Positions 34,681 to 37,600 of a stretch of 64,000 nucleotides of DNA are shown piece by piece; positions within the stretch are counted from its first letter, which is position 1, and the number at the start of each line of letters is the position of its first letter. Position numbers and translations under genes: made by a program. This DNA comes from Escherichia coli (GTDB lineage Bacteria > Pseudomonadota > Gammaproteobacteria > Enterobacterales > Enterobacteriaceae). The stretch is taken from the NCBI RefSeq assembly GCF_048403405.1, contig NZ_CP183129.1; one strand, 5' to 3'. Under the pieces are notes generated by a model. It did not search any database and had not been told where the DNA came from. It saw only the letters and a program-made list of their open reading frames with translations.

Positions 34681-37600
34681 ATGACAGTAAAAATTTCTGG
34701 CGTGCTTAAAGATGGCACAGGAAAACCAGTACAGAACTGCACCATTGTGCTGAAGGCCAGACGAACCAGCAGCACGGTGGTGGTGAACACGGTGGCCTCT
34801 GAAAATCCGGATGAAGCCGGACGTTACAGCATGGATGTTGAGCATGGCCAGTACAGCGTCACCCTGCTGGTTGAAGGTTTTCCGCCTTCACATGCCGGGA
34901 CCATTACCGTCTATGAAGGTTCCAGACCAGGTACGCTGAATGATTTTCTCGGTGCCATGACGGAGGATGATGTCCGACCGGAGGCACTGCGCCGCTTTGA
35001 GCAGATGGTGGAAGAGGTGTCACGTAACGCCTCCGCGGTTGCACAGAATACGGCAGCCGCGAAAAAATCAGCCAGCGATGCCAGTGCATCAGCCAGCGAG
35101 GCGGCAACTCATGCAACCGATGCTGCAGCCTCAGCACGTGCCGCCAGCACGTCAGCCGGACAGGCCGCGTCGTCGGCTCAGTCAGCGTCTTCCAGCGCAG
35201 GAACGGCATCGACAAAGGCCCGTGAAGCAGCAAAAAGTGCTGCTGCTGCAGAGTCATCAAAAAGCGCGGCAGCTACCAGCGCCAGTGCCGCGAAAACGTC
35301 AGAAACGAATGCCGCAGCATCACAAAAATCGGCAGCCACTTCTGCATCCACAGCGACCATGAAGGCGTCAGAAGCTGCCACCTCGGCACGGGGTGCGGCG
35401 GCCTCAAAAGAGGCAGCGAAATCTTCAGAAACGAATGCATCATCAAGTGCCAGTAGTGCAGCTTCCTCGGCAACGGCGGCAGGAAATTCCGCGAAGGCGG
35501 CAAAAACGTCCGAGACGAACGCTAAGTCTTCTGAAACAGCAGCGGGACAGAGCGCCTCAGCTGCGGCAGGTTCAAAAACAGCGGCTGCATTATCTGCCAG
35601 TGCCGCGTCAACAAGTGCCGGGCAGGCCTCAGCCAGTGCCACCGCCGCCGGAAAATCGGCAGAAAGCGCCGCATCATCCGCTTCAACAGCCACAACGAAG
35701 GCTGGCAAAGCCACTGAGCAAGCCACTGCAGCAGCGAGGTCTGCTTCTGCAGCAAAAACCTCTGAAACAAATGCAAAGACTTCAGCAGACAATGCTGCTT
35801 CCTCTAAGGCGGCAGCCGCATCGTCAGCCAGTTCAGCGGCGTCATCGGCATCATCTGCGTCTGCTTCAAAAGATGAGGCGACCAGACAAGCGTCAGCAGC
35901 GAAAGGTAGTGCCACGACAGCAACAACGAAAGCATCAGAGGCGGCAGGCAGTGCGACGGCTGCATCTCAGAGCAAAGTTGCTGCTGAATCCGCGGCAACG
36001 CGCGCCGAGACAGCAGCAAAACGGGCAGAGGATATTGCATCCGCCGTGGCGCTGGAGGATGCGAGCACGACGAAAAAGGGGATAGTACAGCTCAGCAGTG
36101 CAACAAACAGCACCAGTGAAAAGCTGGCGGCAACGCCAAAGGCAGTTAAAACTGTTAAAGATAGTTCAGTTCAAAAAACTGGCGACACAATGGGAGGGCA
36201 GTTAAAAATCAGCACGATAAATGCTCTTCGAATATTCAACCAAGCCTTTGGCCTTATTTTTAGGCGTTCCGAAGATCATCTTCATCTTATTCCGACTAAT
36301 GAAGGGGAGGGGGAAAATGGAGACATCGGTTCATTAAGACCATTCTCTATAAACTTAAGATCAGGGTTGGTGTCCATCGGTAATGGACTAAAAGTTGGTG
36401 GTAGTGTTACTGGTAATTTGACCGGAAACGCAGATACTGCGACCAAGATCAAGACAGCACGTAAGATTGGGGGCGTGGCATTTGATGGATCGGCAGATAT
36501 CAACTTGCCTGGAGTCAACGCTACCGGTAATCAAAACACTACAGGTAATGCTGCGACCGCCACGAAACTTCAGGCAGCCAGAACGATTAACGGTGTGTCA
36601 TTTGATGGTAGTGCAAATATCACATTGACCCCTTCAAATATTGGGGCATTGGCATTAACTGGAGGGACTCTTTCAGGTGGTTTAACTGCTGCTGGTGAGG
36701 TTATTTCAAGGTCAGCAAATGGTCTGCGTATTGCCTATGGCAACTATGGATTCTTTATCCGAAATGATGGATCAAACACATATTTTATGTTGACAGATTC
36801 GGGTAACAGTCTTGGTACGCACAATAGCTTAAGGCCGTTTATAATTAGTAACCATACTGGCAATGTTACAATTGCAACTAAATTAAACGCGAGTGGTGGT
36901 ATCACTGGATCTTTATCGGGTAATGCAAGCACAGCAACCAAATTGCAAACTGCAAGGACAATTAACGGCGTAAAATTTGACGGCTCGGCAAATATTGAAG
37001 CGTTTCCGCCAGGTGTTCCGCTGCCGTGGCCATCAGATACACCACCTGCAGGTTATGCGATCATGCAGGGGCAGACGTTTGATAAGGCAGCATATCCGAA
37101 ACTGGCTATTGCCTATCCTTCAGGTGTTATTCCAGATATGCGCGGCTGGACAATCAAGGGCAAACCCGCCAGTGGCCGGGCCGTATTGTCTCAGGAACAG
37201 GACGGCATAAAATCGCACACCCACAGCGCCAGCGCATCCAGTACGGATTTGGGGACGAAAACCACATCGTCGTTTGATTACGGCACTAAATCCACGAATA
37301 ACACCGGGGCGCATACGCACAGTCTGAGTGGCTCTACGGGGTCTGCCGGTGTTCATACTCATGGTAATGGTATTCGTTGGCCAGGAGGCGGCGGTTCTGC
37401 GTTAGCATTTTATGATGGCGGTGGGTTCACTTATGTCCAGAATTCACAGTATCAAGTAAGCCCGGAGACTTCTTCCTATAGATCGTATTATCAACGTATT
37501 CAGACACAGTCAGCAGGTGCTCATACCCACTCGCTGTCTGGTACTGCAGCAAGTTCTGGCGCACATGCACATACTGTAGGTATTGGTGCGCATACGCACT

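Follow-up and report, generated by a model that had tools for sequence, protein, structure and literature searches.

Phage Ur-lambda has four side tail fibers, each a trimer of the side tail fiber protein (Stf), in which a collar (residues 1-91), a flexible linker (92-101), a proximal coiled coil (102-393), and a hinge (394-422) precede the distal domain (PMC12617516). The proximal coiled coil appears as a rod in electron cryomicroscopy and cryotomography (cryo-EM/ET) of Ur-lambda (PMC12617516), and a fusion of lambda Stf residues 1-393 to P2 gpH from residue 251 is functional, which marks a module boundary (PMC11338833). We present here an analysis of the corresponding part of stf in a lambdoid prophage of Escherichia coli, contained in a stretch of 64,000 nucleotides (nt) of contig NZ_CP183129.1 (RefSeq assembly GCF_048403405.1), referred to below as the window. 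A first-pass annotation, made from the letters of the window, had marked positions 34990-36110 as a low-complexity Ala/Ser/Thr repeat in the side tail fiber gene, probably a shaft of variable length, with long spurious open reading frames (ORFs) in other frames. The tract very probably forms the proximal coiled-coil rod, with an alanine core, of a lambda-type side tail fiber; the extra frames are artifacts of composition, and the length of the rod changes rarely and mostly by whole heptads. Such a rod has already been described, and this one, with about 51 heptads, is ordinary: it has the common long form also found in StfR of the Rac prophage of E. coli K-12. The additions made here are modest (heptad-phased length classes, junctions mapped at in-register repeats, and one documented antisense misannotation), and they do not change the current understanding of phage fibers.

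The ORF at 34681-37707 (+), 1008 amino acids (aa) long, is the side tail fiber gene of a lambdoid prophage tail-tip module, as the first-pass annotation had it. The order of the module on the plus strand is J, lom, stf, and tfa, the lambdoid order for a lambda-type Stf. Pfam model phage_tail_N (PF08400) matches Stf aa 1-134 (E value 5.6e-70; 234 bits against a cutoff of 26.6), and aa 1-94 match the Ur-lambda Stf collar chains 9e7m and 9mgh (phmmer E value, 3.6e-47). Farther along the protein, the Mu fiber S (PDB 8ju3) aligns to aa 432-525, T4 gp34 structures (4uxe and 5nxh) match aa ~557-753, and the T4 gp37 tip (2xgf) matches aa 743-1008 with an E value of 1.2e-79. The part from about aa 135 to 430 is covered neither by a Pfam model (none at aa 135-556) nor by a solved structure (none at aa ~100-430). 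The first 1560 nt of stf, used as the query in genome searches, occur unchanged (100% identity) in the chromosome of E. coli strain 7/2, where RefSeq annotates a single coding sequence (CDS) across the region (WP_000216486.1, "prophage tail fiber N-terminal domain-containing protein") and where the prophage end adjoins potB/potA/pepT.

The Ala/Ser/Thr tract spans aa 103-459 (nt 34987-36057), close to the limits first given, and contains the peptide quoted in the first-pass annotation. It is 39% Ala, 24% Ser, and 11% Thr (73% Ala+Ser+Thr overall). Its GC content is 0.57 to 0.61 against 0.43 to 0.55 in the flanks, and A strongly outnumbers T; codon position 2 is C in 67% and codon position 1 is G in 50% of cases, so that the description as GC rich and triplet biased was accurate. 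The word "repeat" holds for the protein, which has a period of 7, and not for the DNA. Tandem Repeats Finder, run on 34600-37800, returned only two trivial arrays of 26 to 29 nt; the longest exact DNA repeat in the tract is 14 nt, and repeated k-mers are no commoner than in synonymous-codon shuffles. We therefore abandoned a tandem repeat in the DNA as an explanation, since Tandem Repeats Finder gave nothing relevant and the high-identity, head-to-tail copies of a variable-number tandem repeat (VNTR) were not seen. Codon choice that avoids DNA repeats, as under selection for stability, was also considered; the repeat content equals the synonymous-shuffle null and gives no signal either way.

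At the protein level, the tract forms 51 uninterrupted heptads of the pattern A-[ST]-x-A-x-[ST]-S. Over 50 rows of the heptad table, column 4 holds Ala 47 times and Val 3 times, column 1 holds Ala 36 times and otherwise Lys or Glu, and column 7 holds Ser 37 times. For Ala, the Fourier power reaches 41 at period 3.5 and 17.6 at period 7, whereas in 5000 shuffles it never exceeded 7.2 and 10.4, respectively, and the 15 strongest autocorrelation lags of the tract are all multiples of 7. A cyclic heptad hidden Markov model (HMM) describes aa 111-457 as one segment with zero phase skips. The tract has the unbroken 7-residue period and the small or hydrophobic residues at positions a and d that define a coiled coil; it is an ordered coiled coil, neither a DNA-level repeat nor amorphous low complexity. 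The first three heptads have Leu, Phe, or Val at core positions and may form a hydrophobic end that nucleates the rod; Val, Ile, and Leu also occur in the last two heptads, which suggests that the alanine core is capped at both ends by ordinary hydrophobic layers. Repeated 5-mers in the protein number 61, compared with 29.9 ± 5.6 in a within-heptad-column shuffle, and this twofold excess points to old block duplications (e.g., ASTATTKA) with silent sites that are now saturated. Helical secondary structure is predicted by AlphaFold2 (AF2): the single-chain model, of which secondary structure alone was used, is helical over aa 95-478 with a mean predicted local distance difference test score (pLDDT) of 72, and its helices lie at fragment residues 11-170, 179-305, and 312-394.

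Selection on the stf frame follows the same heptads. Over 1467 nt, the window matches stfR of K-12 Rac at 88.5% identity, and the alignment needs no gaps. Differences from K-12 within the tract fall 19, 14, and 84 times at codon positions 1, 2, and 3, respectively; 72 codons differ synonymously and 30 by replacement. The replacements number 2, 10, 4, 0, 7, 7, and 0 in heptad columns 1 to 7, while codons with synonymous changes only are spread evenly (7 to 14 per column). The constrained positions are a, d, and g, as expected of a coiled coil and unlike a drifting linker. This pattern, with 2, 0, and 0 replacements in columns 1, 4, and 7 against 4 to 10 elsewhere at equal synonymous rates, together with the strict phase over 51 repeats, argues against reading the tract as a disordered, low-complexity Ala/Ser/Thr linker, a flexible tether of freely drifting sequence. 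For a linker speak the extreme composition, the BLAST low-complexity filter, which leaves tblastn matches at aa 1-115 and 459-520, and the gap in Pfam and structural coverage given above; the helical AF2 monomer, the rod seen by cryo-EM/ET in Ur-lambda (PMC12617516), and the lack of any net gap in the sampled full-length alignments (86 to 100% identity) speak for order, and we regard the linker as very unlikely.

As a lambda-type rod, the tract would work as follows. By analogy with the Ur-lambda structure, from which the trimeric state and geometry are taken, three Stf chains would form a parallel alpha-helical coiled coil, with a core of nearly all Ala at positions a and d, Ser at g, and Ser, Thr, Ala, and Lys on the surface. 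The rod would join the tail-clamping collar to the hinge and the swappable distal receptor-binding fiber and so would set the reach of the fiber. At ~0.15 nm per residue, its 357 residues would extend ~53 nm, compared with ~43 nm for the 292 residues of lambda, and rod length and phase may have adaptive value.

Comparison with known fibers supports this assignment. Lambda-type Stf has the same collar, with 84% tblastn identity to lambda-type phages over the unmasked flanks of aa 1-499. Lambda-type Stf (HK630) also shares the linker, the heptad pattern, the AAKxSETNA (SETNA) blocks, the end-of-rod motif, and the gene position between lom and tfa; here as there, a proximal rod lies between collar and hinge, and the two tracts are in register except for one 315-nt gap. 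The rod of the window is 15 heptads (105 aa, 315 nt) longer, and the spans of the tblastn matches yield the same 105 aa for lambda-type phages and for Gifsy-1. Lambda Stf has 774 aa against 1008 aa here, where the distal mosaic differs and includes a T4 gp34-like trimerization domain. K-12 Rac StfR (1120 aa) has a rod of equal length, aligned without gaps and with all heptads in register (89% nucleotide and 92% amino acid identity over the tract); it differs in having another distal fiber past the hinge and in belonging to a defective prophage. P2 gpH, Mu gpS, and P1 gpS share the junction motif that follows the rod. The tblastn matches to P2/Mu/P1 fibers are confined to this motif (aa 451-520), those to P2, P1, Mu-like, and Wphi fibers lying at aa 459-499; no collar or tract match to P2/Mu/P1 fibers was found by tblastn, in which the tract is masked by the low-complexity filter.

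Outside phages, the closest structural parallels are alanine-zipper trimers (Lpp-56 with its Ala-5 to Ala-14 mutants and Licanantase), which likewise place Ala at a and d of a parallel trimer and pack tightly, with a small superhelix radius of 5.2 Å versus 6.1 Å (PMC4137666, PMC12284834). They have 3 to 14 Ala layers in 56 to 80 residues, compared with about 100 core positions here, and no sequence homology to the tract. The honeybee silk proteins AmelF1-4 form Ala-rich rods of ~24 heptads, also of small radius and with heptad phase kept among paralogues (PMC12284834), but as antiparallel heterotetramers of eukaryotic origin, unrelated in sequence and function.

The length of the rod is conserved within the allele class of the window. 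Every sampled full-length row of this class, K-12 Rac included, aligns without net gaps at 86 to 100% identity; among complete E. coli genomes, 3,548 of 5,426 have a match that spans 80% or more of the 1560-nt query, and the spacing from collar to hinge is identical in 114 of the 120 closest proteins. Judged from these sequences, tract length is fixed within the class. Other classes differ. Among IMG/VR loci with an N domain at least 90% identical, tract lengths are 347, 340, 339, 242, 235, 130, 128, and 32 aa, and the distal modules that follow are of the P2/Mu type, the PYxYVLQPLP type, or collagen-like (GPPGPKG), or are joined directly. In three IMG/VR loci (L053, L065, and L066), a rod of 124 to 130 aa passes directly into a collagen-like Gly-X-Y region (GPPGPKGEPGP...). 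The shaft of the first-pass annotation is variable in this sense, between classes; it is fixed within a class rather than freely variable, and it is an ordered coil of 51 heptads rather than a featureless one. Invariant length across strains, named in that annotation as the finding that would count against a variable shaft, was observed within the class of the window and not between classes. For the engineering of lambda-based delivery particles, the natural alleles offer rods of graded length, with tracts from ~32 up to 347 residues long that differ mostly by whole heptads.

When all proteins are pooled, 14 distinct spacings separate the collar motif GTLNDF from the hinge motif GIVQLS, and 8 of them (68, 159, 166, 180, 271, 278, 376, and 383) share the residue class of the window modulo 7 (binomial P = 9.4e-4). 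Of 182 individual proteins, 167 have an in-phase spacing, and the two common spacings in the class anchored on PYxYVLQP lie exactly 105 aa apart. These sequences suggest that change by whole heptads is a strong tendency and no law.

Several points weigh against the reading as a rod that changes by whole heptads. The other 6 of the 14 spacings (59, 130, 175, 375, 380, and 386) are out of phase; close relatives differ by -8 (deletions of -7 and -1), -3, and +3 residues, among others; and the protein samples are not random population samples. Heptad breaks of 1, 3, or 4 residues are tolerated by coiled coils. On the structural side, the AF2 monomer folds back at two low-confidence breaks into a three-helix bundle, which we treat as an artifact of modeling one chain of an oligomer, and AlphaFold3 misfolded full-length lambda Stf (PMC12617516). 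The trimeric state and parallel register of the Stf rod are proposed by analogy. Finally, a long, pure alanine zipper, the Ala-14 mutant of Lpp-56, is reported to be unstable in solution (PMC4137666), so that the Stf fiber must gain its stability in another way, probably through the great length of the rod, the caps at its two ends, or the chaperone Tfa.

A second alternative takes the tract as a hypervariable contingency locus of the VNTR type, in which slippage would switch fiber length rapidly within lineages. The wide span of classes, from ~32 to 347 aa, and a very recent 21-nt deletion and GCT loss in alleles that are otherwise ~100% identical would fit such a locus. Its DNA would be expected to hold a tandem array, and there is none: the longest repeat is 14 nt, and repeats match the shuffle null. 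The conserved length described above (no net gap in sampled full-length rows, 3,548 of 5,426 genomes, and 114 of 120 identical spacings) also contradicts frequent length change among close relatives, of which only rare exceptions were seen, and makes a contingency locus highly improbable. In the rod we favor, the heptad blocks have diverged at synonymous DNA sites, leaving a tract that is not an unstable tandem repeat.

The length changes that do occur could be mapped. The allele L017 equals the window except for two or three substitutions and a deletion of 21 nt between direct repeats ATCAGCCAGCGA at 35067 and 35088. The Shigella sonnei-type allele has the same 21-nt deletion and, in common with L022, lacks one GCT of the triplet run; the GCT loss causes a one-residue phase skip, which the heptad HMM picks up. 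Larger changes involve the SETNA family (D1), a dispersed 33-nt repeat with successive copies spaced 231, 126, 84, and 252 nt apart, all multiples of 21. The 355-type alleles (L029 and L041) lack 336 nt (16 heptads), which is the distance from copy 3 (35413) to copy 5 (35749), and their junction falls within an AAKxSETNA block. Identity to alleles of the avian pathogenic E. coli (APEC) O78 type drops from at least 0.9 to ~0.4 at nt 35521 (matches H105 to H109 end at query positions 839 to 842), and homology to plasmid pBL12EC-1 starts exactly at 35749 (H112, query position 1069). The 315 nt absent from HK630 are best placed as a single gap at about 35589. Its endpoints could not be assigned to any particular repeat; of the two copies of the 17-nt repeat D3 (35281 and 35596, spaced 315 nt apart), only the second lies near the best gap. 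The mapped indels of 21, 336, and 315 nt are all multiples of 21 and lie at or between in-register repeats. The earlier suggestion that recombination here gives length polymorphism is confirmed to the extent that length differences among related prophages map to internal repeats. We propose that rare slippage or recombination between repeats spaced 21 × n nt apart, particularly AAKxSETNA blocks, would alter rod length mostly by whole heptads and so preserve the coil phase between collar and hinge.

Two further observations concern how rods end and begin. In APEC O78 (L089), SETNA block 4 is followed at Stf aa ~280-344 by a run of near-tandem SETNA heptads without the GIVQLS hinge motif, which is a different way of ending the rod. 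Two E. coli plasmids of 106 to 112 kb carry the alanine-heptad rod (305 aa, same end motif) at L090 from ~2450 (+) and at L091 696-3410 (+). There the rod sits behind a different N-terminal domain of ~150 aa (MWYREGTITF...), for which Pfam has no match and which adjoins a "phage tail tip fiber protein." As a module, the rod is thus portable and can occur without the lambda collar.

It is conceivable, if rather unlikely, that the K-x-S-E-T-N-A heptads and the 21-nt phasing are maintained as in-register crossover sites for co-resident prophages, at which distal receptor-binding modules would be swapped and rod length changed by whole heptads without breaking the coiled-coil phase, so that rod length could be tuned to the depth of host surface glycans. 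In line with this idea, SETNA blocks hold three independent junctions, namely that of the 336-nt indel, the point at which APEC O78 homology breaks off, and the first position of pBL12EC-1 homology; the same rod behind a different N-terminal domain on phage-plasmids also fits. Otherwise, the SETNA heptads and the phasing would be a mere relic of old duplications. For engineering, the SETNA blocks and the end-of-rod motif are natural junction points.

The ORFs of 76 to 245 aa that the first-pass annotation reported in several frames on both strands are all present (131 and 230 aa on the plus strand; 245, 118, 84, 78, and 76 aa on the minus strand), and its suspicion that they are artifacts proved sound. 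The tract contains few Tyr, Gln, and His residues (0, 9, and 1, respectively) and needs GCN, TCN, and ACN codons; this leaves few stop codons in two other frames, where long ORFs without meaning appear. The 245-aa antisense frame gets stops only at such Tyr, Gln, or His codons. The longest open stretches in all frames fall inside codon-shuffle and synonymous-resample nulls (all P > 0.25), with P values of 0.27 to 0.28 for the 245-aa antisense ORF and 0.46 for the 230-aa ORF. Compared with K-12, the 230-aa ORF has 54 of 73 differences at its own codon position 2 and an amino acid identity of 0.74; more generally, the +1 frame and one antisense frame differ at their own position 2, with amino acid identities of 0.71 to 0.75. 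One antisense frame has 3 stops against ~10 expected, because junctions of an NCT codon with a codon starting in A are avoided throughout the gene. This avoidance of CTA across the junction is seen in both J and stf (window 30164-37704), with 0 occurrences against 6.9 expected in J and 11 against 25.8 in stf.

The best candidate for a real overlapping gene is the 245-aa antisense ORF (35178-35915), which we consider extremely unlikely to be one. It is intact in K-12 Rac, with its GTG start kept, an identity of 0.90, and differences at its own third positions; it seems conserved for free, however, because it shares wobble positions with stf, and its length is that expected from composition. Codon-position counts cannot separate stf from an ORF that shares its wobble positions, and a test on 4-fold degenerate sites was therefore run on seven alleles. 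Sites of the sense frame that alter the antisense product are polymorphic at 0.41, compared with 0.36 for the others; antisense-changing polymorphisms number 7 against a null of 7.0 ± 1.9, and transition/transversion ratios are equal. No Pfam match was obtained for the alternative-frame ORFs, no promoter-like site lies within the tract, and an exact look-up of four alternative-frame translations in a collection of 15 billion proteins found none. In 5.8 billion proteins, the antisense translation matches 20 clusters, nearly all singletons, against more than 5,700 clusters for the sense protein. Neither a length beyond that given by composition nor purifying selection of its own was found, and the alternative frames are artifacts of composition.

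The antisense ORF has nevertheless entered the databases, a point otherwise in favor of a gene. On plasmid pAMPD1 (NZ_CP058356.1), the equivalent of window 35178-35915 (-) is annotated at L090 2999-3682 (-) as hypothetical protein WP_162733458.1, and the "tail fiber protein" CDS starts at locus position 3813, past the tract, despite an intact sense ORF of 1487 aa. The open mirror frame seems to have misled the annotation here; in at least one RefSeq record, annotating the antisense ORF truncates the real fiber gene. The tract is better read as an ordered coiled-coil rod than as junk, and the ORFs around it should not be annotated. In two IMG/VR loci (L048 and L020), frameshifted stf pseudogenes continue into open alternative frames and acquire long nonsense tails.

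That the length of the tract in the window is an assembly artifact, a collapsed or expanded repeat, is next to inconceivable, for although drafts often break here (fragment clusters of up to 1,804 members) and the number of matching places per genome with a match has a median of 2 and reaches 14, two complete chromosomes, those of strains 7/2 and 774, contain the query at 100% identity, the length is equal in other sampled complete genomes, the heptad phase is unbroken, and the tract holds no long DNA repeats to collapse. Assembly collapse, a concern of the first-pass annotation, is no issue for the window. In short-read data from E. coli, Shigella, and Salmonella, assembly systematically stops just inside the tract, and hundreds to thousands of "partial" Stf fragments of 104 to 193 aa (P0121 to P0240; ~35010-35250), in clusters of up to 1,804 members, end at aa ~110-190. 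A homologue search with the N domain only returned such truncated fragments (104 to 193 aa), which were useless for length. The probable cause of the breaks is repetition between prophages and not inside the gene. Because drafts fail where the tract begins, short-read data recover too few Stf genes.

Table 1. Features of the stf region, in window coordinates
Feature	Position	Strand	Evidence or remark
J	30164-33862	+	
lom	33930-34529	+	Context gene
Terminator-like hairpin	34633-34662		Directly upstream of stf
stf	34681-37707	+	ORF; Pfam phage_tail_N, Gp34_trimer, Collar, and Phage_fiber; PDB matches; RefSeq annotation
N-terminal collar domain (aa 1-94), anchor of the fiber to the tail	34681-34962	+	phmmer to 9e7m/9mgh; limits from PMC12617516
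Short linker after the collar	aa about 92-101	+	Limits from PMC12617516
Run of four ORFs in a single antisense frame (118, 76, 84, and 78 aa)	34904-36040	-	Artifacts
131-aa ORF	34967-35362	+	Artifact, like the four-ORF antisense frame
Coiled-coil rod, 51 heptads (aa 103-459)	34987-36057	+	Heptad table, periodicity, heptad HMM, AF2, position-specific conservation
First three heptads, Leu/Phe/Val at core positions	34987-35049	+	Heptad table
Adjacent 21-nt direct repeat D5 (ATCAGCCAGCGAtGC / ATCAGCCAGCGAgGC)	35067-35102	+	Alignments, junction sequence
245-aa antisense ORF, GTG start	35178-35915	-	Mirror frame sharing wobble positions with stf
GCT triplet run (Ala-Ala-Ala-Ala)	35239-35249	+	One GCT lost in L022 and the S. 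sonnei-type allele
AAKTSETNA, copy 2	35287-35319	+	
230-aa ORF, +1 frame	35393-36085	+	Artifact
AAKSSETNA, copy 3	35413-35445	+	Left end of the 336-nt difference
AAKTSETNA, copy 4	35497-35529	+	Homology to APEC O78-type alleles ends
315 nt (15 heptads) absent from lambda-type Stf (HK630)	35589-35903	+	Best single-gap placement; endpoints blurred by divergence
AAKTSETNA, copy 5	35749-35781	+	Right end of the 336-nt difference
Junction/hinge after the rod, with conserved motif common to P2-, Mu-, and P1-type fibers	36058-36165	+	8ju3 match; tblastn; hinge per PMC12617516
Distal fiber: T4 gp34-like shaft/trimerization (aa ~557-753), then T4 gp37-like receptor-binding tip (aa 743-1008)	36349-37704	+	PDB and Pfam
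tfa, tail fiber assembly chaperone	37707-38291	+	Pfam Caudo_TAP, E value 1.9e-44; annotation

Elsewhere in the window, a prophage-borne tRNA cluster at 13230-13479 (+) comprises Met (CAT), Arg (TCG), and Arg (TCT). A class I S-adenosylmethionine (SAM)-dependent methyltransferase gene at 38346-39014 (-), between tfa and a tfa remnant (~39164-39337), lies just inside the prophage end beside potB and looks like cargo. A 45-aa "hypothetical protein" annotation overlaps the end of tfa (~38264-38401). Mirror ORFs of 197, 236, and 239 aa stand opposite nearly the full length of lom and of two other plus-strand ORFs at 33939-34532 (-), 28106-28816 (-), and 43288-44007 (-), respectively, and are probably the same sort of composition artifact as those in stf.

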